Source: an uncultured Faecalibacterium sp.
GTDB lineage: Bacteria > Bacillota > Clostridia > Christensenellales > CAG-917
DNA length: 64,000 bases
Direction: 5' to 3'
Assembly (NCBI GenBank): GCA_964495385.1
Contig: CAZBVO010000001.1
Location: forward strand, 2,127 to 66,126
The translations under genes and the position numbers were made by a program. The notes beneath the pieces were generated by a model. That model did no database searches, was not told the origin of the DNA, and saw only the letters and a list, made by a program, of their open reading frames with translations. This document shows, piece after piece, positions 20,831-57,958 of this stretch. How positions within the stretch are numbered: position 1 is the first letter of the stretch; every line of letters starts with the position of its first letter.

Positions 20831-20851
20831 TAGAAGTTGTTTTATTAAACC

Positions 20852-39041: not shown

Positions 39042-39300
39042 TTAAACCCCCGTAAATCCCAAGTGGGTGCGTGTAAATAAAATAATAACTCAATCATTAT
39101 AGCATAGTTTTCGCCAAAAAGATAGCACTGGAGACGGCAAAATCGGTTTTTGAAAAAATTTTTTACTTGCTTAACCGTCGTTATTGACAGAATTGACCGT
39201 ATTTTTGACACAAAGCATCGTATTTGACGGCTCCTGTTTTAAATTTTAAAGCCGAAGGCAACAATTGCCCGTATCGTACATAAACTTATTTGAGGTGAAC

Positions 39301-40344
39301 ATGAAAACAGTAGTTTTGACCGGCGGAGGCACGGCAGGCCACGTCATACCGCTTATCGCGCTTTTGCCCGAACTTGAAAAAAGATTTGACAAAATTTATT
39401 TTATCGGCGGTTGCGGTCCCGAAAAAGAACTTGCAAAAAAGGCCGGCCTTACCTATTTTCAAACCCAAACGATAGCTTTAAAGCGCAGCTTTTCGCCCAA
39501 AAACCTCGCAATACCCTTTATTCTCGAAAAAGGCGTGCGCCAAGCAGAGGCGCACCTTGAAAACGTAAACCCTTCCGTCGTTATCGGGAAAGGCGGCTAT
39601 GCGTCGCTGCCGACAATGCTTGCGGCAAAAAGGCTCGGAGTGCCTTCGGTTGCTCACGAAAGCGACCTGACCGTCGGTTTGGCAAACAAAATCGCTTGCA
39701 AATCCGGCAGAGCGTTGCTTCTGACCTCATTTCCCGAAACCAAAGGTTTCGGCCGAACGGTTTACACCGGGTTTCCTCTTCGCGAGTCGCTGTCGGAAGG
39801 CAACAAATTTCAAGCGGCAAAATCGCTTGATTTAAACCTTGACAAGCCCGTTCTTCTCGTAATGGGCGGTTCGTCGGGCGCCGAAGCCATAAACAAAGCC
39901 GTCGCGCTTGCCCTCGACAAACTGCTTGCTCAATTCAACGTTGTGCATATTGTCGGCAAACGCAATCCGCTTCCGCCCCTAAGGCAAAACTACCGTCCGC
40001 TTTCCTATTCCGATGACGTACAAAATCTTTACGCACTTGCCGACGTCGTCGTCTCCCGAGCAGGTGCAGGTGCCGTTTCCGAGCTGTCGTACCTAAAAAA
40101 ATCGGTGGTTTTGATACCGTTGCCGTCAAAAGCCAGCCGAGGCGACCAGCTTGACAACGCTCGCTATGCGCAAAGTTTCGGTGCGGTTGTTCTCGAACAG
40201 CAAAATCTTACGCCCGACACGCTTCTGTCCGCCGTCTGCCAAGCAAGAAACGTCAAAATGCGACCGCTGTCTACACCCGCAAACAAAATCATTGCCGACA
40301 TACTTGTTTCCGAAGCAAACGGAAACGGCAAAAAAATATTTTGA
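39301..40344 (+). CDS. murG: undecaprenyldiphospho-muramoylpentapeptide beta-N-acetylglucosaminyltransferase (MurG-like)
   Basis: GT28 family with the N-terminal TGGGTAGHVIP motif and a C-terminal GAGAVSEL motif. The start is set at ATG 39301 after a GAGGTG RBS. Confidence 0.8.
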   Translation: MKTVVLTGGGTAGHVIPLIALLPELEKRFDKIYFIGGCGPEKELAKKAGLTYFQTQTIALKRSFSPKNLAIPFILEKGVRQAEAHLENVNPSVVIGKGGYASLPTMLAAKRLGVPSVAHESDLTVGLANKIACKSGRALLLTSFPETKGFGRTVYTGFPLRESLSEGNKFQAAKSLDLNLDKPVLLVMGGSSGAEAINKAVALALDKLLAQFNVVHIVGKRNPLPPLRQNYRPLSYSDDVQNLYALADVVVSRAGAGAVSELSYLKKSVVLIPLPSKASRGDQLDNARYAQSFGAVVLEQQNLTPDTLLSAVCQARNVKMRPLSTPANKIIADILVSEANGNGKKIF

Positions 40345-40407
40345 CTTATTTTGAAACTTGCCGCCACCTCGAAAAAACGTCTGTTAAACTGCTTGCGGAG
40401 GTGGCAC

Positions 40408-41727
40408 ATGAAAAACTCATCGACCAAATGGCTTTTAGTAACCTTTCTTATCGGCATAAGCGTGTTGTGTTTTGCGCTTTACGAACAGTATTTTACCTCT
40501 GACACTCCGCCCGACACACCCCCTGCGGCCGCCGAACCGGAATCGCCCGACCCTCCTCAGACCGAGCCCGAGCAGCCGACCGTAACCCGAGTTTACAGCG
40601 AGTTTCCCAAAAAGGCCGAAGTATACGAAGGCATGGTAGCGCAAAACGTAGGCGGCTTAGGATGCGAGCGGCTGTTTGAAACGTACGCCGTCGGCGATAA
40701 TTATTACGTGTTTTTCGACAGCACTTCCGACAGCTACGACGTAAACTCCGACGGGGCAACCAAAGCGGTTTGCATGGCGAAAATCAACTCCAAACTCACT
40801 CTCGAAAGCGTATCCGTCATCGCAACCGAACAAACGGTAAAAGCCGTAAAAATCACGCCTACGGGATTTTTCGTGGCAACCGCGGCCGAGGATTTCGGCA
40901 AAATTTACGACGTTTCGTTTGACGGTGCCGTTCAAAACCAAGCGTTCACCGACCTGCCGACCGACGCAAAAATGTATCTTACAAACGGCGAAGTCCTTTG
41001 TTTTTTGACCGCAAAAAACAAAATCGAATGTCTTGTTTACAGCAATTCATTCGATCTTCTTCGCAGCTACAGCAAGTCGTTTTCCGGCGCCGAAAGCATA
41101 AATTCGGTGCTTCCTTCGGCAACCGGCTACACCGTAGCGGCCTGCTCGGACAGCGGATTTACTTTGTTCAATTTTGACCGAAACAGCGGTTTTAACGAAA
41201 CATTACTGTCCGTAAACGGCACGTTGTGCAATTTTGAACCAATTATATACAACAACAGCCAATGCTATTTGCTTGCCTGTTTGTCCGACGATGCGTTTGC
41301 GGTCACGCTTCTCGATTCAAACTTCGACGAACTTTACAAAACCACCCTAAATCGCCCCGAACAGGCTACCGCAATCCCCGTTGAGGACGGCTTTTTGCTC
41401 ATCACAACCGACGGCGATCAAACAAAATGGTTGCTTTATTGCGAGCATCTCGACTTCGTTTTGAATCTCAACGTCAACCTCAACGTAAGCCGTTTATGCT
41501 TTCACCAAACCTTAAATGACGGCGAACGTTTGTGCTTCGAATCGGACGGTTCTCTTGTCTACGCAACCTTCAAAAACGGCAATTTGGCCGTGGAACAAGC
41601 CTTCGAGGGCGCTTCGGGAGGCATAGCGATAGACGGCGTTCTGTGTTTCAACGCCAACGCAAAAAATGGTTTTTTCAAAAAATCTTTCGGCGACGACGAC
41701 GTCTACGTCCTAAAACCTGCCGCCTAA
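40408..41727 (+). CDS. hypothetical membrane-anchored extracytoplasmic protein (Pro/Glu-rich linker, beta-rich body)
   Basis: It has an N-terminal TM (WLLVTFLIGISVLCFALY), then a TPPDTPPAAAEPESPDPPQTEPEQP linker, then ~370 aa with no motif I recognise. The start is set at ATG 40408 after GGAGGTG. Confidence 0.55.
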   Translation: MKNSSTKWLLVTFLIGISVLCFALYEQYFTSDTPPDTPPAAAEPESPDPPQTEPEQPTVTRVYSEFPKKAEVYEGMVAQNVGGLGCERLFETYAVGDNYYVFFDSTSDSYDVNSDGATKAVCMAKINSKLTLESVSVIATEQTVKAVKITPTGFFVATAAEDFGKIYDVSFDGAVQNQAFTDLPTDAKMYLTNGEVLCFLTAKNKIECLVYSNSFDLLRSYSKSFSGAESINSVLPSATGYTVAACSDSGFTLFNFDRNSGFNETLLSVNGTLCNFEPIIYNNSQCYLLACLSDDAFAVTLLDSNFDELYKTTLNRPEQATAIPVEDGFLLITTDGDQTKWLLYCEHLDFVLNLNVNLNVSRLCFHQTLNDGERLCFESDGSLVYATFKNGNLAVEQAFEGASGGIAIDGVLCFNANAKNGFFKKSFGDDDVYVLKPAA

Positions 41728-41734
41728 CAAAAAA

Positions 41735-41765
41735 ATCCACCGCAAGTGCGATGGATTTATTTTTA
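41735..41765. terminator. bidirectional terminator at the left edge of the phage-derived island
   Basis: ATCCACCGCA / TGCGATGGAT stem (one mismatch), flanked by A7 on the left and TTTATTTTT on the right. The holin TAA (41763-41765) lies inside the T tract. Confidence 0.65.
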
Positions 41766-41978
41766 TACTATTTGTTCTTCGTTGCCGTCCGAGCCTCCGC
41801 CCTTACCGTTGTCCTTAATAATTCCCGCAACAACCAAAATGCCGCAAAACGCCGTCACCAATTCGTTGACGTACGGAGCGTCGATTTTGACTCCCGCAGT
41901 TTGCAAAAACACCACAATCGCGCCCGACAAAGCAAGCCAAAAGGTTTTGCTTTTCAGTTTTTCCTTAAAGTCGTTCAT
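41763..41978 (-). CDS. phage holin-like protein (71 aa, two TM segments)
   Basis: It has two hydrophobic helices (FWLALSGAIVVFL; LVTAFCGILVVAGII) and a charged C-terminal tail. It is the last gene of the phage operon, and its ATG overlaps the upstream stop (ATGA). Confidence 0.65.
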   Translation of the reverse strand: MNDFKEKLKSKTFWLALSGAIVVFLQTAGVKIDAPYVNELVTAFCGILVVAGIIKDNGKGGGSDGNEEQIV

Positions 41979-42235
41979 ACGGCAGTGTCCTTTGTCGACG
42001 GTTTGGTTCTGCCGGATGCGATGCCGTGATTTTTCATTTCGTCCAAACTGTTTTGGATGTCTTCCAACTTTTCCTTAACGTCGGTGCTCTGCTTGAGGCT
42101 TGCCGACAGCGATTCGATGGTTTTGGTGTATTTAAGTTCTCTTGTTCGCCCGTCTTTCAGCTGATAGAAAAACAGAAACACAAACAAAGCCGCCCAAATT
42201 CCGTTTGCGGTTGCAAGCTTTAAAATTTCCGTCAA
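41975..42235 (-). CDS. BhlA/UviB-family holin-like peptide
   Basis: The N-terminal TM NGIWAALFVFLFFYQLK is followed by RE.KY and a coiled-coil tail, as in BhlA/UviB. The TTG start overlaps the upstream TGA (TTGA) and has no SD. Confidence 0.65.
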   Translation of the reverse strand: MTEILKLATANGIWAALFVFLFFYQLKDGRTRELKYTKTIESLSASLKQSTDVKEKLEDIQNSLDEMKNHGIASGRTKPSTKDTAV

Positions 42236-43260
42236 GTTATGCCGTAGCGGTCGGAGTTGTTTGCACGCTCTTTAAGCAACGATTTCAATTTGTCGTAGTA
42301 GTTTCCCAAATAGTATTTCATGTTTGCGCTCGACTCGAACGCCTGCAAAGCGATGTCGCTGTCGACCGTAAGGTAGTAGCGCAAAGCCAAATCGTAGCGT
42401 TTGGCATAGTTTTCCTGTTTTTCGCTCGAATAGCCGTATTTCTTTTCGTAAGTGGCCTGTTTTTCGGCAGCCTCGGCGGCCTTTTTTGCGCTGTCTGATT
42501 TGTAGTTTTCGATATCTTTCAACCTGTCGGCATCCAGCTGTGCCTGTTTTTTGGCGATATCGTTGTTTGCTTCGATTGCCTCGTTCGACAGTTTCAAGCG
42601 TTCTTCTTTAAGCTCGTCTATCCTTTCGGAAAGTTTTTTCGCATAATCCAAATCGAGGTCGGCAATACTTTTTTGTTTTTCCGTTTCGAGGCTACCGATT
42701 TCTTTTTCGACGTCCGAAATTTTTGCATTGTAAGTATTTACCAAATCTGCGGTTTTTTCGATGCCTGCCTTGTCGTAGCCGCCCAAAATTTCCGAAACGA
42801 TGCTGCTTCTGCCAAGACCTCGTTTCAGCATGTCGTCCGAAGCCGAACTTTTTGCCGAAGCCACGGCGTCTGCGGTTTCTTTTAAAGCCGCCGCCTTGTC
42901 CGTCTCGAGCTTTTGACCGTACTCGGCAAGCTGCTCGCCTTTGTTTTTGGTGTAATCCGAAAGGTTTTGAATCTCTTTGGCGTAGTCACCCGAAAGTTCC
43001 GACTCGGCCTTTAGTTGCAATTGTTCGTCCGTCGACGGAGTATATTCAACCTTTTCCAGCGTGATTTTCGGGAAAAGAGCATCATAATCCGGCTCGGCGG
43101 ACTGATTTTTGGATTCGAGCTGTTGTTCGAGTTGTTTCAGTGCGTCCACAAGTCCGCTGGTCGTTTCTCCCTCGATGGCCGCACCTGCACGTTGGGCCTC
43201 GTCGTCGGCCGCTTCCGATTTTGTTTTAAAAAGATCTTTAATATCATCCCAAATTGACAT
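42232..43260 (-). CDS. phage coiled-coil structural protein (needle/plug- or fibre-like candidate)
   Basis: 342 aa, mostly heptad-rich Ala/Lys/Glu sequence with a Tyr-rich C-terminal knob. It sits after the hub-size gene. The start is set at MSIWDD (ATG 43258-43260) with GGAGG 6 nt upstream. Confidence 0.5.
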   Translation of the reverse strand: MSIWDDIKDLFKTKSEAADDEAQRAGAAIEGETTSGLVDALKQLEQQLESKNQSAEPDYDALFPKITLEKVEYTPSTDEQLQLKAESELSGDYAKEIQNLSDYTKNKGEQLAEYGQKLETDKAAALKETADAVASAKSSASDDMLKRGLGRSSIVSEILGGYDKAGIEKTADLVNTYNAKISDVEKEIGSLETEKQKSIADLDLDYAKKLSERIDELKEERLKLSNEAIEANNDIAKKQAQLDADRLKDIENYKSDSAKKAAEAAEKQATYEKKYGYSSEKQENYAKRYDLALRYYLTVDSDIALQAFESSANMKYYLGNYYDKLKSLLKERANNSDRYGIT

Positions 43261-43369
43261 TTCCATCCTCCGTTTGTTGTAAAAGTTTGATTTTGTTTTC
43301 CAAAACGGCAACTCTGCGTTCCAATCTTTCGACCGCCGCAAGAAGCCCTTCGATTCTAATGTCCGTCAT
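43244..43369 (-). CDS. unannotated 41-aa leucine-zipper-like ORF (MTDIRIEGLLAAVERLERRVAVLENKIKLLQQTEDGNVNLG)
   Basis: Its ATG (43367-43369) overlaps the TGA of the 488-aa gene (ATGA). Its TGA (43244-43246) lies 17 nt inside the next gene. The heptad pattern of L/V/I is clean. It fills an otherwise empty 105-nt gap. Confidence 0.5.
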   Translation of the reverse strand: MTDIRIEGLLAAVERLERRVAVLENKIKLLQQTEDGNVNLG

Positions 43370-44832
43370 GCCAAATCCGCCTCCACCGTAATTGCCGACA
43401 CAAGCGGATCTTTTTTGTCGGTATCAACGGCAAATCCCACGGTTTTGCCTTTTTTGTTGACAACTATTTTCTTCGGTTCCGTGCCGCCTTTGACAAAATA
43501 AGTTTTGCTTTTTCCGTCCAAAGTCACCGTAAAGTTCAAATCCGTCGAAGTGCTTACGTTCACGGTTCTGACGGTCTTGGTTTTATCGGCACGCCCGAGG
43601 TCGGTTTGCGCGCTTTCCCAATGTTTTGGAAGCAGCGTCGAAAACAGCTTTCCCGATTCCGACATCATTCCGATATCGTGCGAATGCTCGCCCCTGAAAA
43701 ACACCAGCATCTCGCTTATGTGCAAGCATTCGACGGAAACAAGGCCTTTTACGTCCGCCCCTCTCAATATGTCGGTATCGCCCGTTTTAAGGTTGATGCG
43801 AACGACGCAATTGTTCGTGCTTCCGTGGTCGGTTTCGGACAAAATTTCTTTTTCGTCCGCGCGCAGGCGGCAAGCAAGATAATAATGCCCCTTAACGTAT
43901 GCTCCCCTTGCTTCGGTGCGATCGCCGTAAAACAAATTTTCAATTTTAGACGCAATATGGGTGAGCGTATAACCGTTAAACGAAAACAGCCCTTCGTCGG
44001 TCAAAAACACTATTCGGTCGCCGCACAGAGCGATGGTGTCGGCAATGATTCTGGATGCGGAAGCGTAAATTTTCGACACCGAGTAATTCTCTTGCGAACC
44101 GTACGCCGTAAGCCTGACAATGCCGTAATCCCTAAAAACGTAAACGTGGTCCAAAAAACTGACGGCCTTTATGACTCTGCCTCCGTCGTCGTCAAAGTTG
44201 ATAAAGCCGCCCTCTTCAAGCGACGTGTTCCAGTTGGACGGATCGAAGTCGTCCGAAAACCACAGGCTGTTCGATTCGCCGGCAACGGTGGCGTAAATGC
44301 GCTCGTAATGCACGCACATGCTTGTAATGCTGGGGGCGTTTTGCGCATACGAAATGCTTTCGCCGTCATAGATATACAGTCCGCCTCCCTTGCCCGCAAC
44401 AATCAAAACGTCCTTGCCGTTGAAGCGGTAGTTCACACTGCAATCGTCGCCGGTAACTGCAATGCCGTCGATTTTGTCAAACGTACCCGTGCTCCAACAA
44501 GGGGCAACGTAATAACTTCCCGTATTTGTCCTAACAACAATTTTATCGTCTCTTTTTGACTCGGTAAAATTATATTTTCGGTAAAAGTGCAAATTTTCGA
44601 TTTTTTCGTTTTCGGGCAAAGCCGGCAAATAATGCCTGAATTTTTTGTCCGTCAACAGCCCCAATTCCGCCTTATCTATCCCTATTTTGGCTCTCAAAGC
44701 TCCGCCTGAAAAAGTAAAATTGTAAGTGTTCGGGCTGAAATTCGGTGCCAAAAGCGAAGCGGCCGTCGAGGCGTCAACACCTTTAAACGGCGATATTCTC
44801 AATCTTACCCGACTTACTTTGGTGCCTCTCAT
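43366..44832 (-). CDS. phage structural protein, tail-hub size and position (P22 gp10-like candidate)
   Basis: 488 aa and beta-rich. The segment SLWFSDDFDPSNW...GRVIKAVSFLDHVYVFRDYGIVRL resembles what I recall of the P22 gp10 'stabilisation protein'. The ATG at 44830-44832 follows GGAGGTG and overlaps the upstream TGA. Confidence 0.45.
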   Translation of the reverse strand: MRGTKVSRVRLRISPFKGVDASTAASLLAPNFSPNTYNFTFSGGALRAKIGIDKAELGLLTDKKFRHYLPALPENEKIENLHFYRKYNFTESKRDDKIVVRTNTGSYYVAPCWSTGTFDKIDGIAVTGDDCSVNYRFNGKDVLIVAGKGGGLYIYDGESISYAQNAPSITSMCVHYERIYATVAGESNSLWFSDDFDPSNWNTSLEEGGFINFDDDGGRVIKAVSFLDHVYVFRDYGIVRLTAYGSQENYSVSKIYASASRIIADTIALCGDRIVFLTDEGLFSFNGYTLTHIASKIENLFYGDRTEARGAYVKGHYYLACRLRADEKEILSETDHGSTNNCVVRINLKTGDTDILRGADVKGLVSVECLHISEMLVFFRGEHSHDIGMMSESGKLFSTLLPKHWESAQTDLGRADKTKTVRTVNVSTSTDLNFTVTLDGKSKTYFVKGGTEPKKIVVNKKGKTVGFAVDTDKKDPLVSAITVEADLA

Positions 44833-45371
44833 TGCGGCCACCTCCTGCTTTTTACAAACAGCCTGATGCTTTTGTTTTTCAGGTATTTAAGGCCGTCGGT
44901 GAAACGTTTGTATGCCGCCGCCGCTTCGGTAGGCATATTTTCGGCATAGCAAAATTCGGCCGCAACACCCTCGGCGACAAGCCATTTTGCAAGACGTTTA
45001 TCCTCGATTTCGCCGTCCAAAGTCAAATCGTCCGCAAGGTAAGCGTATTCCACTGCGGCCTCGCCGTCAAAAGTCGATTCGACGTAGTTTGCTCTCATCT
45101 TAAAGCATTTCGTTTCGCCGTGCGATTTGACCGAAACTATGTAAAGCAAAGGCTTTGTCAGTTCGTCGTAGCGCAACACTCCTTCCGTAAATCGGACGTC
45201 CTCCACGGTCGTCAACGGCAAGTATTCCGTTTCTATTTGCTGATAAACGAGGTTCAAGCACTTCAATGCTTTTTCAACCAACGCATTTTCTTCGGAGGTC
45301 ATCTCCTCAAAATCGATGTCGCCGTAACCGAGTTTAAACAATGCGGCGGCGATTATTTCTTTAACAGTCAT
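44829..45371 (-). CDS. phage head-tail adaptor-size protein
   Basis: 180 aa with an AGGAGG RBS. It lies between the capsid and hub-size genes, where podovirus adaptor (gp4-type) genes sit. I recognised no motif. Confidence 0.4.
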   Translation of the reverse strand: MTVKEIIAAALFKLGYGDIDFEEMTSEENALVEKALKCLNLVYQQIETEYLPLTTVEDVRFTEGVLRYDELTKPLLYIVSVKSHGETKCFKMRANYVESTFDGEAAVEYAYLADDLTLDGEIEDKRLAKWLVAEGVAAEFCYAENMPTEAAAAYKRFTDGLKYLKNKSIRLFVKSRRWPQ

Positions 45372-45380
45372 ACAGTCCTC

Positions 45381-45767
45381 CTATAGTTCGTCGTACAAAG
45401 GAACTTCGGCCCCGCCGTTTTCGAGATAACTTACCAGATTTTTAAGCTTATATTCCCTTTCGTCCCTAGCCGCCTCGCGCCGATTTTCGGCAAGGCGTTC
45501 GTTTGAGCGGTCAATTTCTCCGATAAGGTTTTCGGCATTTTCGGGAGACGTTTGCAAAAAGTAAGTCAAGCTTCTTCCGTCCAATTCTTCAAACGGAAGC
45601 ACCGCACGCCTCTCGTCGCCCATATATACTTCAAAGCGGTTTTTTTCGCGGTTGAAAAAAACTTTCAGCCGCGAATCTATGCCCTTAAATCGGTCCGCTA
45701 TGTCAAAAACGTCCCGACGTATTTCAACCAATTTTCCGTTCAAAAGGTCTCTTCTCAAAAACGACAC
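45381..45767 (-). CDS. phage hypothetical protein (128 aa)
   Basis: GTG start with a GGAGGA RBS. It is the first gene after the major capsid gene. The C-terminal half is charged. I recognised no motif. Confidence 0.4.
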   Translation of the reverse strand: MSFLRRDLLNGKLVEIRRDVFDIADRFKGIDSRLKVFFNREKNRFEVYMGDERRAVLPFEELDGRSLTYFLQTSPENAENLIGEIDRSNERLAENRREAARDEREYKLKNLVSYLENGGAEVPLYDEL

Positions 45768-45793
45768 GGCCGTTTCCTCCTACAATTTATTTG

Positions 45794-46975
45794 CTAAGCG
45801 GTTATGCCGCAAAGTTTGATTTGACCGCTCGGTCTTTCGCAAAGCAAGTCCGCATACTTAACCAAAGTCGCATAATAGGTCGGAGTGCCTGCCATTTGAT
45901 GAAGCACACTGCCGCCCTCGCCCTCGATCCAACGCCAATCGCAAAGCTGATGCAGCTTAAAGTCGTCGGTGTTAAGCATATACATGGTTCCGTCCGCAAC
46001 AAATCTGTCGGCCACCATAGGGATGCCGCTGTAGCTTATGGCTTTGAAGCCGCCGTCAACGTTCATAACGTCGATGTTGGTTGCCTTAGCGGTGACGGTT
46101 TCGATGTATTTGCGACGCACGTCGTAGCTGGCGGAAATGAAATTGATTTCGCTGCCGGAGGCGATTTCCGCTTCGTCGATGGCATTTTGCATCACGTCGA
46201 TAGACAGCGTGCCGCAATCGGATTTAACGTACGGTTTGAGGAAATCGTAATCCGCTCTGTTCAAGCCGTAAAGAGTTTCGCTGTCGCCGAAAATCGCTTC
46301 CAAACCGGTCAGTTCGGCGTCCTTGCTGTTTTGAACGTAAACGGTGCTGCCTGCGGCAAAAGCCGAGCTCGGCACGACGGAAATTCTGATTCTCTGTCCT
46401 GCCTTGTCGATGCCGACGATGCGTTTGTTCTTGCCTGCGGCGGTAATCGTGCCGGAAGCGGTGGCAATATCCACGGTCATGCCCAAAACGAATTTGGAAA
46501 CGTCGTCCACTTTGATGTAGTCGTTGGCGGAACTGTCGGACACGTCTTTTGCCACAACAGTCGCGAGTTTGCCGCTGCCGTCGCCGTAAAGCATACGTCC
46601 GAAGTTCAGTCTGCTTGCTTTAAGCAAGCCGTCCATTTCGGCGTTCAAAAGGTTGATGAATGCGCCGCCGTCGGTCTGAGAAGCACGCAATGCCTTGTCG
46701 GAAATTTCAATTTTTCCGAAAAAGTTTTTAAGCGAAAGTTTAAACTGTTCGTAACCGTTGCCGCCGGCAGTCGGAAGGTTTCCGGTTTCGCTTCCTGCGC
46801 CCACGCCGCCGTTTACGCCGTAAGTGCAAAGTTTGACTATTTCCTTACCTGCAACATCGGCGGAAGTCTGCTCGATTTTTGCAAGAAGCGGATTGATTTT
46901 GCTGTTAAGCTGATCGGTTATAACCGAAAGATAAAAAGATTTGAGTGCCTTTTCGGCGGTTTGAAAATTGATCAT
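45794..46975 (-). CDS. phage major capsid protein (HK97-fold type)
   Basis: 393 aa, preceded by the scaffold gene and by a GGAGA RBS. The Gly/Ala-rich sequence, with FGKIEISDKALRAS and GRMLYGDGSG-type segments, resembles major capsid families. Confidence 0.75.
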   Translation of the reverse strand: MINFQTAEKALKSFYLSVITDQLNSKINPLLAKIEQTSADVAGKEIVKLCTYGVNGGVGAGSETGNLPTAGGNGYEQFKLSLKNFFGKIEISDKALRASQTDGGAFINLLNAEMDGLLKASRLNFGRMLYGDGSGKLATVVAKDVSDSSANDYIKVDDVSKFVLGMTVDIATASGTITAAGKNKRIVGIDKAGQRIRISVVPSSAFAAGSTVYVQNSKDAELTGLEAIFGDSETLYGLNRADYDFLKPYVKSDCGTLSIDVMQNAIDEAEIASGSEINFISASYDVRRKYIETVTAKATNIDVMNVDGGFKAISYSGIPMVADRFVADGTMYMLNTDDFKLHQLCDWRWIEGEGGSVLHQMAGTPTYYATLVKYADLLCERPSGQIKLCGITA

Positions 46976-47004
46976 TTTTTTCTCCTTTAAATTTTATTGT
47001 GACA

Positions 47005-47610
47005 TTACTTAAACATATCTTCCGCCATTTGCTTAGCCTCACGAAGCGACTTCGGCTTTTTTGGCGGAGTTATGATCGTGCGTCCGCTGTCACCCACGGT
47101 TTTAGGATTTCTGTTTGCGCTTTTTGCGTCAAAAAATCTTTCGGCGCAGGCGGCGACGACGTCCTTGTTCGACAATACGTAGTCTTCCAAAAATCCTTCA
47201 CTGTTCAAAATATCTTCGGCAGAACGGTATTTTGGCGCAAGCAGCTGTCCCAAAGCACACCAAAGTGCCGCTTCGTCCTCGACGTCCACCCCCTCAAACG
47301 ATAGGGCAATTTCGTCTTGAATCGGCAACAGATTTGGATACTTCGATACCGTTTCGGCCACTGCCGTTTGCGTCTTGATTTTGCCTTCCTCTTTCAGGAG
47401 ATTTGCTTTATTTAAGTCGTCAATTTGCTTTTCAAGGGTTTTAAGTCGCTGACTACGACGTGTAAACTCCTTTTCCAGCGCACTGTAGGCCGCATAAAGT
47501 TCGTCCTTGTTGGAAAATTTTCCGATTGCTTCCTCTTTTTCGGCGGTCGGATTAACCTCTTTGCCGTTTTCGGTCTCGACTGCTTCGTTTTCGGAAATTT
47601 GATCTTTCAT
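47005..47610 (-). CDS. phage scaffolding protein
   Basis: 201 aa, acidic and helical, with the ELYAAYSALEKEFTRRSQRLK motif common in scaffold (DUF4355-like) proteins. It lies between the portal and capsid genes. Confidence 0.65.
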   Translation of the reverse strand: MKDQISENEAVETENGKEVNPTAEKEEAIGKFSNKDELYAAYSALEKEFTRRSQRLKTLEKQIDDLNKANLLKEEGKIKTQTAVAETVSKYPNLLPIQDEIALSFEGVDVEDEAALWCALGQLLAPKYRSAEDILNSEGFLEDYVLSNKDVVAACAERFFDAKSANRNPKTVGDSGRTIITPPKKPKSLREAKQMAEDMFK

Positions 47611-47621
47611 TGTCGTTCCTC

Positions 47622-49484
47622 CTAAATATTTTCCGTTGATTTAATCATGGTCGCAAGTTGTCCGTGCTGTTCGATATGCTCGGTAATTTTGCGCTTAACT
47701 TCGCTGTCGCCGTCATATTCTTGCGACAGAATAAATTTCGTATGTTCGGCGATATGGATGCTGTGTTCGTCCGTTTTGTCCGGCTCGACGTCGGTTCCGT
47801 CGGCCATTTTCAAATTTTCTCTCATGGCCTTTTTGATGTTCAATTCTTCGATGTCTTTGCTGTGTTCCCAGTTTCCGAAGCCCAAAATCTCCAACACTCT
47901 GGCCTTGTTTCTCGGCGAAACCGAGCCGTTTTCTTCGTTCAAAAGCCCCATGCTCAAAATCTGCATAACCATGCTTCTTCTCGAAGCGGCAGTGTCGGAC
48001 AAATCGTTTTCAGTGTCGAAAGCGATGTCGTCGGACGTGAGGTCGTTGCCGACAAAGTACACCAAATCCACCTCGCCGTTTTCGCCGGCAATACGTTTGA
48101 GTCGGCGCGTAGTGGCAAACTGTTTATACAAACGCAAAATCTGTTTGCCGATTTCCAAAATGGCGGCGCGCAAATTGTTTGCGGTTATGCTCATACGGGT
48201 ATCGTCCTGTTCGATTATGAGGCTTATCGCCGTACCGCTGGTTACGTTTTCGGGAACTCTGCTGTATCCCATAACTTCCGAAACGCCGGAAATCATGGTA
48301 AACTCTTGCAAAAGTCGGTCCTCCTCTCGCTGGAAATCCGCCGGAACGCTGCCGGCATTCATCATAACGGGAGGGTTACTACCCTGTCTGTAAACCAAAA
48401 TTTTGCCCGGACAAAGCCCTTCGTCCGCAAGCTGTTCGGTGTCCACGCTTCCGTCCTCAACCGCCAAAACACCCATGGCGATTCTGTTCAAAAATTCCAG
48501 TTTTCGGTTTTTGACCGCATTGTAAGCTCGCTGTACGGGGATACATCTTTCCACTATGCTTGCGCCGAAAAACGCACCGGCATTGTCCAGCGACACCTGC
48601 TTAACGAACGGATATTTCCGTTTTCCGCCCTCGCCGTTCATGTACGGAAGTTCGCCGTAGTGGCAAAGTTTGTCGCCTGCAACGATAATGTGTCTGCCGT
48701 TAGGAAACTCGGAAGTCGGCATTTCGAATTTTTCAATCACCACAACGGCATCTTCTTTTATTTCCGTATCCGCCGCCGGCACCGTCGAGCCGTAACCGAA
48801 TCCGCCGTGAACGGTCATATTTTCCATGTTAAAAACGTTCACTCTTTGCGGTTCGGCCTTAACGCCCCAAATGTCTTCGACGTCTTTTACCGAGTAGGCC
48901 TTAACGTGCATAACGGAAGGTTGTTTATCCAAATCGCCGTCCAAAGTTTCGGGATAAATTTCAAACGGCGGCACAACCATAACCGAAACGTCGCCGTCGG
49001 TTGCCGTTCGGCCTTCGAAAGAATATTTCGGTCCCTTGTCTCCGTCCCAAACCACCTTGTAAAACACCGTTCCGCAAATTTCGCTCCAATAGTTTGCCGC
49101 CGAAAGAAGATTCGGAAGCTTGTTTTCGGCAATAATGCTGTTTAATATTTGCGTGCTGAGTTTTGCGGCCGAAACGTCTTGTTCGTCGGTGGTCAGCGGA
49201 CGCACCGTAACGCCGCTACGCACTCTCGACAGCTTTGCAAGCCTTGTCTCGACTATAGGCGCAATGTGGTTAAAAACAGACCTTTTCTGCCAATAAAACT
49301 GTTTGTTTTCCTCGTCCAATTCGCCCCGAGCGTTGATTTCGCTGAATTGATTGCCTGCCATAAAATTCATATTCAATCGCCATGCCTGTTCGGTTGTTCG
49401 CCTTGCATGACGGCGTTTTTCGAAATCGGCCCTGACGTCGGCAACCAACTGTTCCTGAAATACGTTTGTAAGTTTGTTATTCAT
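47622..49484 (-). CDS. phage portal protein
   Basis: 620 aa, immediately downstream of the terminase. Size and position are typical of a portal. The acidic C-terminus is consistent with that call. Confidence 0.75.
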   Translation of the reverse strand: MNNKLTNVFQEQLVADVRADFEKRRHARRTTEQAWRLNMNFMAGNQFSEINARGELDEENKQFYWQKRSVFNHIAPIVETRLAKLSRVRSGVTVRPLTTDEQDVSAAKLSTQILNSIIAENKLPNLLSAANYWSEICGTVFYKVVWDGDKGPKYSFEGRTATDGDVSVMVVPPFEIYPETLDGDLDKQPSVMHVKAYSVKDVEDIWGVKAEPQRVNVFNMENMTVHGGFGYGSTVPAADTEIKEDAVVVIEKFEMPTSEFPNGRHIIVAGDKLCHYGELPYMNGEGGKRKYPFVKQVSLDNAGAFFGASIVERCIPVQRAYNAVKNRKLEFLNRIAMGVLAVEDGSVDTEQLADEGLCPGKILVYRQGSNPPVMMNAGSVPADFQREEDRLLQEFTMISGVSEVMGYSRVPENVTSGTAISLIIEQDDTRMSITANNLRAAILEIGKQILRLYKQFATTRRLKRIAGENGEVDLVYFVGNDLTSDDIAFDTENDLSDTAASRRSMVMQILSMGLLNEENGSVSPRNKARVLEILGFGNWEHSKDIEELNIKKAMRENLKMADGTDVEPDKTDEHSIHIAEHTKFILSQEYDGDSEVKRKITEHIEQHGQLATMIKSTENI

Positions 49485-49773
49485 TTTGTCTCCTTTTTTC
49501 CTCGCTTTCTTTTAGCGCTGAAAGCAATCGCTGTTTCTCTTCCAAAAGGCGGCTTTCGGACAGTTCGCCCAGTTCCGACTGTCCGCCCGACAACTCCGCA
49601 ACCGATTTAATGGCCACGGTATCGGGCGGATAGTATTTTTTGGTAACCTTTTTTTTCAAAAGCACAAAATCGCCGTCGGCATTGGTGCCGTACTCTTCCA
49701 CTATTTCGTCGGCGGTAAAGCCCGTCGCCTTTTTGGTCAAAGCAGCCTTTAATTTTTTTGGTAAGCCGTTCAT
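49477..49773 (-). CDS. small phage protein between TerL and portal (98 aa)
   Basis: It is coupled by an ATGA overlap to TerL and overlaps the portal start by 8 nt. The segment KKVTKKYYPPDTVAIK resembles a motif I associate with some small-terminase proteins, but this is a weak call. Confidence 0.4.
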   Translation of the reverse strand: MNGLPKKLKAALTKKATGFTADEIVEEYGTNADGDFVLLKKKVTKKYYPPDTVAIKSVAELSGGQSELGELSESRLLEEKQRLLSALKESEEKRRQNE

Positions 49774-51203
49774 TTTTTGTTCCTTTTGTTAAGTTTAATA
49801 AGACATTCGATATCTCGCTGGATTTCGGTTTTTTGCAATTTCGAGGCGTGCGGCACGGGATCGGACATAACAAAATACCTGAGTTCGTCCAAAGCGTGAT
49901 CGTCGATTTTTTTCGGTCTGTCGCCCTCCGCCCACGCATAGCCTTTAAGTTCGCGAATAAGGTTCACGCAGGAAGAAAAAATTGCGATTTTCGGCGGCCT
50001 TGCGGCAAAAAGATTTTTCAGTTTTGCAATTCCCGAAAACAAATCCTTGTTGACTTTTGCGTTCACGATTATGCCTTTTTCGCAAAACAGTTCCGACACG
50101 CTTTTTTTGGATGCAAGCGTTTTTTGGTTGGCCGCGCTGTCTATCAACGCATGAAGTCGGCCTTTCGAGTCACGCTTCCAGCCGATGGCGTCGGCGATTT
50201 TTTTGATTTTTTCGACGTGGTAATCTATTTCCCTTCCCGCTTCGTAGTGTTCCGCCACGACGTAAATCACTCCGTCACCGTCAACTGCGTAAAAGTGGCA
50301 GCTGAGCGGATTATTTAAGCCGGGATCGACGGATATATCCGCCTGCCATTCCTCGGGAACGTCAAAAGGATCGACAACGTGAACGTTGACGTCAAATTCC
50401 GGATAAACAAGGCCGTTCAAGCGTTTAAACCGTCCGTATCTTCTGGTTTCTTTCACGTCGTCCGACAGCGAATCGGACAGCGTTTTAACCTCGTTTTCGT
50501 CCAAAAATGGATTGTCCGCCCACTCCATCTGCTCGTACCAAACCTCGGGATTTCCGCCTTGATTCAAATAAATCTCGTCGTACACCCAGGTCTGGCCTTT
50601 AAGCGGAGTCATCGTTCCGAAAAGGTCGCCTTTTTTGTCCAGAACACGCATTTGACATTCCCTGTAAACGTCCTCCGGCGGCTCCTCGTCGAACCACACG
50701 AAATCCAGCGACGCACCCTGAAATTTTTCTCGCCCCTGATCGGCGGACTTAAAGCCCAACGTCGACCTGCCTCCAAACACGTTTTTCACCACGATTTTGT
50801 CGATAACGCCCGTTTCGGGGCTGTCCTTTTTGCCCGAAAGCATCACGATATCCTCAATCCAATCGGCCGACAGATACGACATTATCTTTTTTTGCGCCAC
50901 CTCCCGTTGCACCTCGTAACTCACCGAAACGGCCCATCCCTCGACGTTGTCTCTGTTTTGCCGATAGGGATGAATGCCTCTCAGCATCCAAACCGTCTCC
51001 ACCGCTCCGCATTCCGTTTTACCGCTTCTGTTGCCGCCGAAAACCCACCTGTTCCGTTTTTGACATTTGTGAAAATCCAGCTGTTTTTGATGCTTGATTT
51101 GCCCGGAATTATATTGTTGCAAACGTTTTTTACCCTTTCGTTTTTCCAGCTCGGCCTCTATTTCCAAAATGCGTATAATCCTTTCTTTTTCCGAATTTGC
51201 CAT
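49770..51203 (-). CDS. terL: phage terminase large subunit
   Basis: 477 aa with Walker A GGNRSGKTE, Walker B LDFVWFDEEP and a C-terminal RNase-H-like nuclease region. RBS is AGGAG. Confidence 0.88.
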   Translation of the reverse strand: MANSEKERIIRILEIEAELEKRKGKKRLQQYNSGQIKHQKQLDFHKCQKRNRWVFGGNRSGKTECGAVETVWMLRGIHPYRQNRDNVEGWAVSVSYEVQREVAQKKIMSYLSADWIEDIVMLSGKKDSPETGVIDKIVVKNVFGGRSTLGFKSADQGREKFQGASLDFVWFDEEPPEDVYRECQMRVLDKKGDLFGTMTPLKGQTWVYDEIYLNQGGNPEVWYEQMEWADNPFLDENEVKTLSDSLSDDVKETRRYGRFKRLNGLVYPEFDVNVHVVDPFDVPEEWQADISVDPGLNNPLSCHFYAVDGDGVIYVVAEHYEAGREIDYHVEKIKKIADAIGWKRDSKGRLHALIDSAANQKTLASKKSVSELFCEKGIIVNAKVNKDLFSGIAKLKNLFAARPPKIAIFSSCVNLIRELKGYAWAEGDRPKKIDDHALDELRYFVMSDPVPHASKLQKTEIQRDIECLIKLNKRNKK

Positions 51204-51280
51204 AATACTCCTAAAAATGCTTTATTTTTGCAGACATTTGGTATATAATTTAATGTGTATAAGTATTTAATGAGGTAACT

Positions 51281-52324
51281 ATGAAGCGCTTAATTTTGCT
51301 TACCGCAATTTTGTCACTCTTTGTTGCGGCAATCATACCTACAACCGAAGCCGTTGCCGTCGCCGACTCGACGACGCTTGTAACCGGAGAGTATCTTAAA
51401 GTTGACGAATCCGTCACCTTAATTTCGGCAAACTTCAGCAAAAACGAGATTTTTACCGTTCCTGCATCCTACTACGTTCAGTATCTCGGCTATGACGAAG
51501 ACAACGAAATTCATCTGTTCAAGTATATGGACGTCGAAGGCACTCTTTCGGACAGCGACGTTCAAAAGCTTTCCAAGCAAACCGACAGCGACTTTCAAGA
51601 TGCCGAAACCGACCGCAATCCTAATTTGGATCTCACCGTCGTAACCGACATCACCGACGTAAGCATCGTCGCCATAAAAAGCACCAAAAACGGCAAGAAA
51701 TCCGAAGTCGCCGTAGCCGATTTTTCGGCAGGCACCGCCTTCACTTTCTACGGATTTTTAAATCACGACGCCACCGATTATGCCTTTGTTAAGGGCGCAG
51801 ACGGAAGTTACTGGTACATCCCTACCTCCGTTTTGCTGGTGACCTCGGTTGAAGGAAGCACCGTAAACGCCGAAAGGCTGTCGTCCTACACTCTGCCGCA
51901 ACACTACTATTCCCGTCCGCCGGTCGAAATCATCGATCCGTCCGACAACCAAAACAGCGGCGGCACAAGCGGTTCGAACAATCTTTTGAACGTCGACAAC
52001 AACGTGCTTCGCATCATGCTTATCATCGGAATAGTTCTGCCGGCAGTCATCATAATGTTTTTGCTTTTCAAGCCGGTTGCCAAAAAGAAAGGCGGCTACG
52101 ACTACGACCGCAACAGAAGTTACGATCAAGGCCCGTCCCCTTACGACCAACCGCGCAGCCGTTATCGCGATGACGATTATTACGACCGCAGGTATCGCCG
52201 AGACGACCGCTACGACAACCGCGACCGCCGTGACGACCGCAACTACCGTGACGACCGCGATTACCGCGATTATCGCGACTACCGTGACGACCGTGATCGC
52301 CGCGACTACGACGACCGCTATTGA
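51281..52324 (+). CDS. signal-peptide/TM protein with SH3-like ectodomain repeats and an Arg-Asp-Tyr repeat cytoplasmic tail
   Basis: It has a signal peptide MKRLILLTAILSLFVAAIIPTTEA, a ~230-aa ectodomain, a TM segment LRIMLIIGIVLPAVIIMFLLF and an 84-aa tail (…RYRRDDRYDNRDRRDDRNYRDDRDYRDYRDYRDDRDRRDYDDRY). RBS is GAGGT. It is the only plus-strand gene in the island. Confidence 0.7.
   Translation: MKRLILLTAILSLFVAAIIPTTEAVAVADSTTLVTGEYLKVDESVTLISANFSKNEIFTVPASYYVQYLGYDEDNEIHLFKYMDVEGTLSDSDVQKLSKQTDSDFQDAETDRNPNLDLTVVTDITDVSIVAIKSTKNGKKSEVAVADFSAGTAFTFYGFLNHDATDYAFVKGADGSYWYIPTSVLLVTSVEGSTVNAERLSSYTLPQHYYSRPPVEIIDPSDNQNSGGTSGSNNLLNVDNNVLRIMLIIGIVLPAVIIMFLLFKPVAKKKGGYDYDRNRSYDQGPSPYDQPRSRYRDDDYYDRRYRRDDRYDNRDRRDDRNYRDDRDYRDYRDYRDDRDRRDYDDRY
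52141..52321 (+). repeat. imperfect tandem CGN-GAC/TAC coding repeats (RD/Y low-complexity tail)
   Basis: Runs of cgcgac/cgtgac/cgcgat/taccgc units. The absence of stop codons in several frames produces four overlapping spurious track ORFs here. Confidence 0.85.
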
Positions 52325-52329
52325 AACCC

Positions 52330-52357
52330 ACCGCACCGTTTCGGTGCGGTTTTATTT
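52330..52357. terminator. terminator between the convergent RD-tail gene and the island regulator gene
   Basis: ACCGCACCG (52330-52338) / CGGTGCGGT (52342-52350), followed by TTTATTTG on the plus strand. It abuts the regulator's stop codon at 52352. Confidence 0.65.
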
Positions 52358-52852
52358 GCCCGAAATTTCGGCGAGTTTCTCCTCCGAGCGGCGTTTTTCA
52401 AGTTCGTAAAGAGGCATCGACTTAAACTCGTCTTTTAGTGCCGCAAATTCTCTGCTTTCCGCCAAAAGCGTTGCCAGCTGTCTGGTTGCGGCGTCGTAAC
52501 GTCTGAAACAATTTCGAAGCGACCAGCCCGCCTTGTCGGCGATATCGGCAAATTGCAAATGTTCGACAAATCTTTGCGTCAACAGTTTTTCGTCCTCGGT
52601 TTTTGACAGGATTTTTTCGACGACCGAACGAAAACGGAGGTAGGTTTCCTTTGTTTCAATCAGATCGATGATTTTGTTGCATTGGTCAAGCGTCGACGAG
52701 CCGCGCTTATAGTTGAAGCTTGCCAACGCCGATTTCAAAATCTGTCTTTCGATGGCTCTGATTGCGCCTGCCGTTTTTGCGTAAACACGCATAACGATCT
52801 TTGCTTCTTCTGTTTCCCAAACGGTCGGGCAAAGTTGCGAATTGTTTGTCAT
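52352..52852 (-). CDS. phage late-gene activator candidate (RinA/ArpU/sigma-70 region-4-like)
   Basis: 166 aa. The segment LLTQRFVEHLQFADIADKAGWSLRNCFRRYDAATRQLATLL has the look of a sigma region-4 HTH, as in RinA/DUF1492-type phage activators. It is the first gene of the island. RBS is GGAGA. Confidence 0.5.
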   Translation of the reverse strand: MTNNSQLCPTVWETEEAKIVMRVYAKTAGAIRAIERQILKSALASFNYKRGSSTLDQCNKIIDLIETKETYLRFRSVVEKILSKTEDEKLLTQRFVEHLQFADIADKAGWSLRNCFRRYDAATRQLATLLAESREFAALKDEFKSMPLYELEKRRSEEKLAEISGK

Positions 52853-52885
52853 AAGTGGTTCTCCTTTCCTTCGAATTTATCGTCT

Positions 52886-52938
52886 TTCTAAAAATTCAAC
52901 CCACCCGAAATTGCGGGAAGGTTGAATTTATTTTTGCC
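52886..52938. terminator. compound hairpin/terminator in the 5' leader of the island regulator gene
   Basis: AATTCAACC (52893-52901) .. CCCG..CGGG .. GGTTGAATT (52920-52928). TTTAG follows on the minus strand and TATTTTTG follows on the plus strand. It lies between the predicted promoter and the ORF. Confidence 0.55.
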
Positions 52939-52969
52939 CGAATCGGGGCTTATGGGGTGCGATGTGCCT

Positions 52970-52999
52970 ATCTTAACGCCGAAAAACTGCATTTGTCAA
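52970..52999 (-). promoter_or_regulatory. candidate sigma-A promoter for the island regulator (TTGACA-18-TAAGAT)
   Basis: Complement of 52994-52999 is TTGACA. After an 18-nt spacer, the complement of 52970-52975 is TAAGAT. The -35 is embedded in TTTGTCAAA (52992-53000). Confidence 0.5.
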
Positions 53000-53049
53000 A
53001 CTTTTATGACATCAAACGGCAAGGCATATTTTGCAATATTTTGATTTCG

Positions 53050-53088
53050 TTTGTCGAATTTTAAAAGTACTTAAATATATTTGTCGAA
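53050..53088 (+). promoter_or_regulatory. two exact TTTGTCGAA motifs 30 bp apart (Spo0A 0A-box-like)
   Basis: TTTGTCGAA occurs at 53050-53058 and 53080-53088 in an AT-rich spacer upstream of the regulator promoter. The core TGTCGAA equals the classical 0A box. Confidence 0.4.
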
Positions 53089-53154
53089 ATATGTTGAAAT
53101 CAATACAAAATCCACAGAAATTATCAAATAAAACTGTAAAATAAATTTTTTTGA

Positions 53155-57800: not shown

Positions 57801-57917
57801 CGGATTGCCTTCATTTTTCTCTACACTTTTCTTAAAAACGTCGTTTTCTTTCCAGAATGCCAAAACCTCTTTTTCTCTGTCCACGAAATTGAGGCCGGTA
57901 TCAACTTTTTTATACAT
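54813..57917 (-). CDS. ileS: isoleucine--tRNA ligase (long type 2 form)
   Basis: HIGH (GKPHIGH), KMSKS (KMSKHKGN) and a CP1 editing domain. The start is set at MYKKVDTGLNF (ATG 57915-57917) after GAGGAG, giving ~1034 aa. Confidence 0.95.
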   Translation of the reverse strand: MYKKVDTGLNFVDREKEVLAFWKENDVFKKSVEKNEGNPEFSFFDGPPTANGKPHIGHILTRVMKDIIPRYKTMKGYHVLRKAGWDTHGLPVELEVEKLLGIDGKPEIEKYGVEPFIQKCKESVWKYKHEWEVMSDRVGYWADMDNPYVTYDDNYIESVWWSLKEIDKKDLIYKGHKVVPYCPRCGTALSSHEVAQGYKDVKDTSAYVKFKVKGEEGTFFLAWTTTPWTLPSNVALCMNAKTDYVKIKVGDEKYILAESLVPSLFEDYEIVDRKKGKDYEYVEYEPLFDFYKEGKKAFFVTNAEYVTTTDGTGVVHIAPAFGEDDTQVGRAYGLPLVQFVDTRGKMTAECGEDLEGLFVKDADKVVLRKLKEAGLLFKKAEFEHSYPFCWRCDTPLIYFARSSWFIKMTAVRDNLLKNNNAVNWMPASIKNGRMGNFLENVIDWGFSRERYWGTPLPIWICDKCGKRHVIGSRKELCELAGLEKAPELHKPYLDPITWDCDCGGTFRRTPEVMDCWYDSGSMPFAQWHYPFENKETFEKVFPANFISEAVDQTRGWFYTLLAISTLLFDKNPFENCIVLGHVNDKNGIKMSKHKGNVVDPFSVLDVQGADAVRWYFYTASAPWLPSRFSADNVSEAQRKFMGTLWNTYAFYVLYADIDKFNPCEHKLEDQQLTTMDKWLLSSLNSLIAYVDEALNEYKITESARAIGDFVDDLSNWYVRRSRERFWGSDMTKDKEAAYTTLSHVLIELSKVIAPFVPFMAEQIYQNLAKNFDKNAPVSVHLCQFPKADFTAIDKSLEDGMKEVIKVVTLGRACRNKANVKNRQPLSVLYVKGKPLTDELKALVADELNVKEVSSSASDREFITYELKPQLKTIGPKYGPLLGKIKAFLASADGFEIVDAIENGVYTTEIDGKTVEFSKDDLLVSVKDREGFAAETEGDVTVILNTAVTPELVSEGLAREIVSKVQTMRKEAGFEVVDHIVIGLKASDEIKQAAIANAFVKRVTLAEDVVDELDGYVKEWDINGENVMLSVKKIG

Positions 57918-57958
57918 AGATGCTCCTCTAAATGCCGTTTGGCTCAAATTATTTTCGT

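Follow-up and report, generated by a model that had tools for sequence, protein, structure and literature searches.

Why does a block of intact phage structural genes lie among the housekeeping genes of a gut clostridium with no gene for integration, replication or immunity beside it? We addressed this question for an ~11-kb island of phage genes for head, neck and lysis functions, encoded on the minus strand between positions 41,763 and 52,852 of a 64-kb stretch of contig CAZBVO010000001.1 (the window, to which all coordinates refer; relative loci that were fetched carry L numbers and relatives of the capsid protein P numbers). A first-pass annotation had read the island as a domesticated particle locus resembling a gene transfer agent (GTA). 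GTAs have long been known almost only from Alphaproteobacteria. The first podovirus-like GTA of a gut commensal was reported in 2024-2026, for Faecalibacterium only: FpGTA of Faecalibacterium prausnitzii (PMC12946183; Nat Commun 2026, preprint 2024). Our profile searches and comparative checks, and the fact that FpGTA, which has the same gene order, makes DNA-filled particles, supported the GTA-like, domesticated reading. We consider the island to be, with fair probability, a chromosomally fixed morphogenesis-and-lysis module of a P22/SU10-like short-tailed phage, comparable in kind to operon I of FpGTA. It is a domesticated, vertically inherited element, and not a decaying prophage, because related blocks lie at the same site, keep a constant span, show low ratios of nonsynonymous to synonymous substitution (dN/dS) and diverge in step with the host protein ParE.

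Layout and gene content of the island

Thirteen open reading frames (ORFs) on the minus strand and one on the plus strand lie between terminator-like hairpins at 41758-41733 and 53189-53161, both on the minus strand, the latter 3′ of a pseudouridine-synthase gene; all the minus-strand ORFs listed by the first-pass annotation were present in their places. Seven of the 11 junctions overlap: holin/BhlA, BhlA/DUF7934, o41/hub, hub/o180 and o98/TerL by 4 nt each, portal/o98 by 8 nt and DUF7934/o41 by 17 nt. The operon ends at the intrinsic terminator 41733-41758 (minus strand), which lies 5 nt past the holin stop codon and has an 11-bp stem and then a T run. A third, strong hairpin terminator (52330-52350, plus strand; 9-bp stem with seven GC pairs, then a T run) separates the convergent genes of a membrane protein and a regulator.

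The guanine-cytosine (GC) content is flat at 0.47-0.49 over the island and its flanks, in agreement with the earlier impression of a base composition like that of the neighbouring core genes. These are parC, parE and murG on one side and, on the other, the pseudouridine-synthase gene (rluA), an S-adenosylmethionine (SAM) methyltransferase gene and ileS; the remainder of the window consists of housekeeping genes. Scans of the island ORFs and flanks with Pfam, PHROG and NCBIfam profiles revealed no integrase, replication or immunity gene. The island has no transfer RNA (tRNA) gene, its borders have no flanking direct (att) repeat pair, and no Rfam family, T-box included, matched anywhere in the 64 kb. 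Two hallmarks of a GTA are present: structural genes in the chromosome free of replication, integration and immunity genes, and vertical inheritance under purifying selection.

Conservation, selection and distance from phages

The major capsid protein (MCP) has a very large family: a word-indexed search returned more than 5,800 relatives, one scan placed relatives in at least 587 species-representative genomes, and a HMMER scan found 4,104 clusters at 50% identity with E <=1e-3 and 623 with E <=1e-30. In the closest relative (MCP 85% identical), the island occupies the same site in the same order, with each gene at or near its length in the window. The parE/murG-rluA/ileS site is shared with relatives at ParE identities of 54-91%, and at capsid identities of only 59-62% the block again lies between the rluA side and murG/parE, in Christensenellales as well as other Clostridia. 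Acutalibacteraceae and a very prevalent gut organism carry the island at other sites and without holin genes in cis; the L149 locus consists of exactly ten ORFs.

The core order TerL, TerS remnant, portal, scaffold, MCP, o128, o180, hub and DUF7934 was kept among the first 90 loci fetched, and 65 of the 66 fetched loci that were large enough for the complete core had it intact. The core genes had full-length counterparts, and the span from TerL to DUF7934 had a median of 9337 bp with a standard deviation of 364 (n=60 loci). Nothing that the first-pass annotation had named as speaking against its reading was found: in the relatives examined no full prophage was seen at the island site, and Pfam searches of five neighbourhoods (four distinct contexts and that of the close relative at the window's site) found the 10 kb to either side free of integrase and replication genes.

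The same annotation had proposed a check of synteny and selection, and this check returned the same parE/murG-rluA site, intact genes and dN/dS values of 0.08-0.27. Calculated against the 85%-identical relative at a dS of ~1-2.7, which is near saturation and makes the values rough, dN/dS was 0.09-0.10 for the MCP (0.10), portal (0.09) and TerL (0.10), 0.08-0.27 for the other computable island genes and 0.05-0.07 for the flanking core genes. Values were computable for 11 of the 12 minus-strand operon genes (the dS of BhlA was saturated), for the regulator and for the membrane protein, and all were well below 1. Island identity fell with ParE identity, with Spearman coefficients of 0.81-0.88 among loci with ParE on the same stretch, and the local GC content of the island followed that of the host over a range of 26-62%.

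The MCP was at most 29.5% identical to deposited phages, and IMG/VR held mostly 4-17-kb fragments of the same island block. The nearest phage-like contig (L133; 60 kb, MCP 39% identical) carries a full TerS, a replication initiator and a tail spike, all without counterpart in the island. Taken together, the findings on site, breadth, intactness, selection and distance from phages rule out both a recently deleted derivative and a remnant in decay, and argue for long-term vertical inheritance under selection.

Packaging and capsid proteins

Profile searches bore out the TerL, portal, HK97-type capsid, BhlA and holin calls of the first-pass annotation. The large terminase subunit TerL (477 aa; 49770-51203, minus strand), with the Walker A sequence GGNRSGKT, matched Terminase_6N (E 8e-13) and Terminase_6C (E 6e-4) and, in a profile-to-PDB search, the terminases 5oe8/5oea (E 3e-9); it is 61-83% identical in most relative loci. 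The portal (620 aa; 47622-49484, minus strand) is of the P22/SU10 type, matching PF16510 (E 8e-25), PF23899 (E 3e-10) and phrog_156 (E 4e-39). Profile-to-PDB sequence searches with TerL, the portal, the MCP, o180, the hub and the DUF7934 protein gave weak or generic matches at best.

The small terminase subunit TerS had been reported as not recognizable, but the 98-aa ORF between TerL and portal (o98; 49477-49773, minus strand) proved to be a TerS fragment without the N-terminal DNA-binding domain. All 31 members of its family matched the TerS profile phrog_309 (best E 1.8e-9), and the window copy covers only positions 197-239 of the 319 in this profile. The full TerS of L133, a 165-aa protein encoded just upstream of TerL, spans positions 131-284 of phrog_309 and matches a DNA-binding family with residues 8-48; the o98 family profile aligns to its residues 64-124. 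Because o98 matches only this inner part of the full protein, the island retains a TerS core that lacks the DNA-recognition end.

A 201-aa protein (47005-47610, minus strand) is the scaffolding-protein candidate by its position between portal and capsid. It had no family match in Pfam, PHROG and other profile scans, and its own family profile matches the proteins that hold this slot in the phage-like contigs L133, L138, L139 and L140. The MCP (393 aa; 45794-46975, minus strand) matched NF033394 (capsid_maj_Podo, E 2.4e-83) and phrog_14242 (E 5e-59). Its AlphaFold2 (AF2) model reached a predicted local distance difference test (pLDDT) score of 91.3, and Foldseek assigned it to HK97-fold capsids with probability 1.0 at identities of <=13%. 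The capsid proteins of a large set of relatives are extended at the C terminus by a Flg_new domain of ~70 aa (PF09479, Listeria-Bacteroides repeat; P0006, P0010, P0027 and many more, L005:10001-11401 and L149:6623-7999 among the loci), which would be a built-in surface decoration.

Neck, hub, helical and lysis proteins

Downstream of the capsid gene, o128 (128 aa; 45381-45767, minus strand) holds the slot of orf69 in P22; it matched no Pfam, PHROG or NCBIfam profile, and relatives have a protein of ~100-130 aa in this slot. The next gene product, o180 (180 aa; 44829-45371, minus strand), is a head-to-tail adaptor candidate by position and size only, standing in the slot of P22 gp4 and of the FpGTA adaptor. 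It had no profile or PDB match, and hhalign of its family with P22 gp4 gave only a 15-residue N-terminal match (E 0.11).

The tail hub/nozzle (488 aa; 43366-44832, minus strand) is of the P22 gp10 class and matches phrog_3287 (E 8e-11). Its orthologue in L009 has PF11134 (Phage_stabilise, the P22 gp10 family), its homologue in L133 matches phrog_578, ‘head closure Hc3’, which is the product name of gene 10 in the P22 record, and it weakly matches the 1005-aa SU10 chain 7z47_G (E 0.005). The sizes given earlier for the hub and the coiled-coil protein agree with the best-supported starts: 44832 for the hub (488 aa, the longest ORF being 491 aa) and 43260 for the DUF7934 protein (342 aa, the longest ORF being 369 aa).

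A coiled-coil-like peptide of 41 aa (o41; 43244-43369, minus strand) has a conserved slot, which holds an ORF of 33-46 aa in L001, L005, L010 and L149; o41 is 65% identical to the L001 copy and has a dN/dS of 0.26. One Christensenellales lineage (L007:13554-14582, plus strand) has in this slot a 342-aa beta-rich protein that could be a fibre or receptor-binding protein in cis. The idea that o41 is a truncated form of this protein was rejected, as the two have no similarity.

The DUF7934 protein (342 aa; 42232-43260, minus strand; PF25588, E 5e-107) is a probable virion component. Its AF2 model (pLDDT 88) consists of a very long antiparallel helical hairpin and a small C-terminal helical bundle. 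The fold search returned generic coiled coils only and no significant PDB match, the sole phage match being T7 8e4g_a (probability 0.89, E 2.3). The first-pass annotation had drawn a parallel between the island and the P22 gene order that ended with this coiled coil as the gp26 needle; the order of TerL, portal, scaffold, coat, adaptor-size and hub-size proteins stood, but the needle assignment found no signal in hhalign. Alignment of the family profiles with P22 gp10 likewise gave no signal. The operon closes with two small lysis genes, for a BhlA-family holin-like peptide (86 aa; 41975-42235, minus strand; PF10960, E 7e-16) and a phage holin (71 aa; 41763-41978, minus strand; PF04531, E 1.7e-4; phrog_297, E 1.6e-11).

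Regulator, divergent membrane protein and promoter-like motifs

The 166-aa regulator (52352-52852, minus strand) has a sigma-70 region-4-type helix-turn-helix and is, by the profile matches of its family, a candidate late activator resembling RinA, ArpU or extracytoplasmic-function (ECF) factors. Sigma70_r4 was matched by 10 of 10 family members (best E 1.6e-6), although the window copy itself is marginal (E 0.1); the sigma-region-4-like call of the first-pass annotation holds at the level of the family. Sigma70_r4_2 was found in nine of the ten (best E 3.2e-10), DUF1492 in four and Sigma70_ECF in three, and the family shares the conserved block L.MRF.K.K.F.DIA..L.ISLR.VFR.YD.AL. Upstream of the regulator gene, a consensus scan located a promoter-like site of the sigma-70 type, TTGACA-18-TAAGAT (52970-52999, minus strand). 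This site is one of three spaced copies of T(T/C)GACAAA in the 310-bp intergenic region (52970-53095, minus strand). The copies may form an operator array or a set of promoter-like sites that overlap.

A second motif, AATTATATAcc-N10-AAAAATAAAG (51220-51250, minus strand), precedes the TerL start codon by 17 nt. The window contains it once, against 0 occurrences expected by chance; it is kept in L001-4, L009-11 and L058 and shortened in L007, L008 and L043. Across same-site relatives it takes the form AATTATATA(c/a)c-N10-AAAAATAAAG, AT-rich and directly upstream of TerL, and it is a candidate promoter of the structural operon. In the other group of loci, TerL is preceded instead by GTGACATAA..TTTG and AAATTGAAAGTCTTT. 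The motifs upstream of TerL in both groups may be promoters read by the element's sigma-like factor.

Divergent from TerL, a plus-strand gene (51281-52324) encodes a 347-aa membrane protein that combines a signal peptide with a single C-terminal transmembrane helix and a tail of Arg/Asp/Tyr repeats. The protein had no family match in profile scans; blastp found it in 36 of 66 complete loci. Wherever gene calls were read, including at other chromosomal sites, its gene sits on the other strand, immediately upstream of TerL, and its dN/dS is 0.18. The 3′ end of the gene (52183-52323, plus strand) is made of 11 tandem 9-nt units, which encode the tripeptide repeats of the cytoplasmic tail.

Island variants and neighbouring genes

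In a more distant relative (L146 and L147) we observed a minimal 8-kb version of the island, which lies between housekeeping genes in the order TerL, 81 aa, portal, 182 aa, MCP, 106, 175 and 497 aa, and BhlA, without DUF7934, regulator or membrane protein. The ~16-kb recurrent contigs of P0361 were considered as a small free phage and rejected as such, since they are chromosomal fragments with housekeeping flanks.

Beside the island in the window, murG and an adjacent 458-aa membrane-anchored ORF (39265-41727, plus strand) share only 59% and 53% identity with their counterparts in the closest relative, against 88-91% for parE, rluA and ileS around this pair. The 458-aa gene, which has no family, adjoins the island in 11 of the 11 same-site loci where it was detected and was not detected in ~10 other loci that carry parE/murG. 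Across the island, ileS (54813-57947) is of the long type with a DUF5915 C-terminal domain, and right beyond it, outside the island, a 495-aa protein with a Big_3 immunoglobulin (Ig)-like domain (57959-59446, minus strand) is a possible surface protein. Far from the island, at positions 19001-21000, the GC content dips to 0.43 at an RlaP-family gene (RNA-repair-associated nucleotidyltransferase; 19770-20519) and climbs to 0.52 over the pyruvate phosphate dikinase gene beside it.

Proposed mechanism and alternative explanations

How might such a module work? A host signal would switch on the sigma-region-4-like regulator, which would in turn drive transcription from the conserved AT-rich motif upstream of TerL. 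Scaffold, capsid protein and portal would build a small HK97-fold procapsid, and TerL, working with a DNA-blind TerS remnant, would fill it by the headful with any chromosomal DNA, as suggested by the anatomy of the island and by FpGTA and the alphaproteobacterial RcGTA. The portal vertex would then be closed by the adaptor candidate o180, the gp10-like hub, o41 and the DUF7934 protein, and the BhlA peptide and holin, together with a cell-wall hydrolase encoded elsewhere, would lyse some of the cells to release the particles. The hydrolase, and any fibre, would come from elsewhere in the genome. The data show the identities of the genes, their intactness, the fixed location, purifying selection and divergence in step with the host; particle formation, random packaging, a small head and any delivery of DNA are inferred from the anatomy and by analogy with FpGTA and RcGTA.

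Particles of FpGTA are ~40 nm in size, have no visible tail and contain random host DNA of 8.4-8.9 kb (about 8.5-9 kb) (PMC12946183). Nanopore sequencing of capsid-packaged stool DNA revealed GTA-like short random host fragments in Ruminococcaceae, Oscillospiraceae and Christensenellaceae, and the fragment peaks of the Christensenellaceae, at 4.1 kb for HGM11616 and 6.3 kb for QANA01, were assigned no locus there (PMC12946183). Because the fragments are this short in FpGTA and in Christensenellaceae (4.1-6.3 kb), the DNA packaged by the island is likely to be shorter than the ~11-kb locus itself, and the T=7 head holding several times the island length, proposed in the first-pass annotation, does not agree with these sizes. 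As a bolder and distinctly tentative extension, which we hold to be possible but somewhat doubtful, the present family, and not FpGTA proper, would be the unassigned cluster behind the 4-6-kb host-fragment packaging in Christensenellaceae and further gut Clostridia. It would be a single ancient agent of podovirus origin that became fixed before the clostridial orders split, with a conserved site and its own sigma-like factor. If true, this would be the most widespread GTA lineage outside Alphaproteobacteria.

Several points weigh against reading the island as an FpGTA-kind module. Neither the island nor the rest of the window revealed an endolysin, a tail spike, a fibre or an ejection protein, as the first-pass annotation had likewise reported of the island for integration, replication, immunity and these late functions, so that competence for delivery is only putative. 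The locus and its close relatives are known here from their genes, FpGTA also from its particles, and the likeness between them is drawn from gene order, gene content and annotation labels. Moreover, the labels themselves disagree: FpGTA has an ‘N4-gp56 family’ capsid and a ‘Prp’ scaffold slot, whereas 13 of 13 capsids here match only NF033394 and none TIGR04387 (N4-gp56), and the scaffold-slot proteins have no Prp domain. This disagreement argues for some distance from FpGTA. The proteins of the two elements are, with fair probability, distant homologues. The position-only call of o180 as adaptor and the near-saturated dS belong on the same side of the balance.

In an alternative reading, the island is a domesticated particle maker selected for a role other than gene transfer. 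Its particles, or the lysis itself, would serve to kill competitors (as in PBSX), to release DNA or other cell contents to the benefit of the population, or to interfere with infecting phages, with the packaged DNA never delivered. A locus and window with no receptor-binding protein, ejection proteins or endolysin would suit such a role, as would two holin-type genes, one of them of the bacteriocin-associated BhlA family, and the authors of FpGTA leave DNA delivery open (PMC12946183). However, a complete and conserved packaging motor (TerL and portal dN/dS ~0.09-0.10) is hard to explain if the DNA is irrelevant, and since the tail and lysis genes of FpGTA reside in a second locus, their absence here is weak evidence. 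We regard a purely non-transfer role as unlikely.

The combination of head, packaging and connector genes with no tail, and the many 4-17-kb IMG/VR contigs with the same block, would also be expected of a satellite resembling capsid-forming phage-inducible chromosomal islands (cf-PICIs), which would make its own heads and borrow tails and replication or induction functions from a helper phage to spread. Such an element is very improbable here, given that integrase, primase or replicase, excisionase and att repeats are all missing, that the TerS has no domain to recognize the element's own DNA, and that the position is fixed over deep host divergence with the island co-diverging with ParE. We give the least credence to a defective prophage remnant left by a deletion, functionless and kept by chance. 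Structural genes alone are the look of many remnants, but full-length core genes with a constant span in 60 loci, dN/dS well below 1 for every computable gene, and a common site in hosts down to 54% ParE identity, where no relative with a full prophage was seen, speak against it.

If the island is, as we favour, an FpGTA-kind module, such elements are present, intact and under selection in hundreds of other, mostly uncultured species of gut Clostridia, and some of these species have kept them at one chromosomal site in spite of very deep divergence. The island would also offer a candidate locus for the unexplained packaging of host DNA in Christensenellaceae, so that the extent of gene flow by capsids in the gut could be tested directly.

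Comparison with known systems

The island resembles P22 (genes 3-2-1-8-5-orf69-4-10-26) in the order and sizes of TerL, portal, scaffold, coat, small ORF, adaptor-size and hub-size proteins, in the PF16510 match of its portal and in the ties of the hub family to PF11134 (L009) and phrog_578 (L133). It differs from P22 in having no gp26 needle, gp14/7/20/16 ejection proteins or gp9 tailspike, in a TerS that is truncated and downstream of TerL, and in a capsid of the plain HK97 type instead of the P22 coat family. With PBSX of Bacillus subtilis it shares domestication and a Gram-positive host, and PBSX packages short random host DNA and lyses its producer. PBSX, however, is myovirus-like, with a contractile tail, tailocin action, ~28 kb and its own repressor and endolysin, and its homology to the island is limited to a generic terminase fold (TIGR01547, E 6e-5, far below cutoff). 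The traits of capsid-forming PICIs, namely an integrase, a replication module, att sites and mobility between sites, were not found in the island.

In RcGTA, TerS is said to lack specific DNA recognition and auxiliary genes are scattered elsewhere in the genome. The island is like RcGTA in vertical inheritance, purifying selection and a head-packaging cluster without replication or integration genes. In contrast, RcGTA is siphovirus-like, has a long tail in its cluster and is under CckA-CtrA/GafA control, whereas the island has a P22-type portal, a gp10-type hub, a sigma-region-4-like regulator and no tail tube; there is no detectable sequence relationship beyond shared folds.

The closest likeness is to operon I of FpGTA, which is chromosomal, spans ~9.6-10.5 kb with ten ORFs and has no replication or integration genes. 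The order in the FpGTA proteomics table is TerL (RCH50852), portal (RCH50851), unknown (RCH50850), MCP (RCH50849), unknown (RCH50848), adaptor (RCH50847), tail nozzle (RCH50846), an undetected gene and a very abundant ‘TolA’-labelled protein (RCH50844) (PMC12946183). From the portal through DUF7934 the two orders match slot for slot, with TerL at the head in both, and the DUF7934 slot is that of the abundant coiled-coil ‘TolA’-labelled particle protein. Both have a TerS without DNA-binding domain, short-tailed-phage ancestry and gut Clostridia as hosts. FpGTA has a second operon of 5.5 kb with genes for a receptor-binding protein, an anchor, an endolysin and a holin (PMC12946183), of which the tail fibre and endolysin have no counterpart in the window. 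The island in turn places its TerS remnant between TerL and portal, has two holin genes in cis, and has the sigma-like regulator and divergent membrane protein attached.

No Faecalibacterium-named protein was found among the named homologues of the capsid and DUF7934 proteins, nor among the named members of their clusters and representatives at 50% identity. The sources do list ‘Faecalibacterium sp.’, next to Eubacteriales bacterium, as a name for the cluster of the 85%-identical capsid. True Faecalibacterium has a GC content nearer 56-57%. The very prevalent carrier L149-151 has a GC content of 47% and, because of this difference, is probably not a true Faecalibacterium. The published survey of FpGTA homologues covered 16 genomes in three genera only (PMC12946183). 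Taken together, the kind of element is already known from FpGTA; new here are the breadth of its distribution, the conserved chromosomal site, and the attached sigma-like regulator, promoter-like motif, divergent membrane protein and cis holins, which go beyond the published description.

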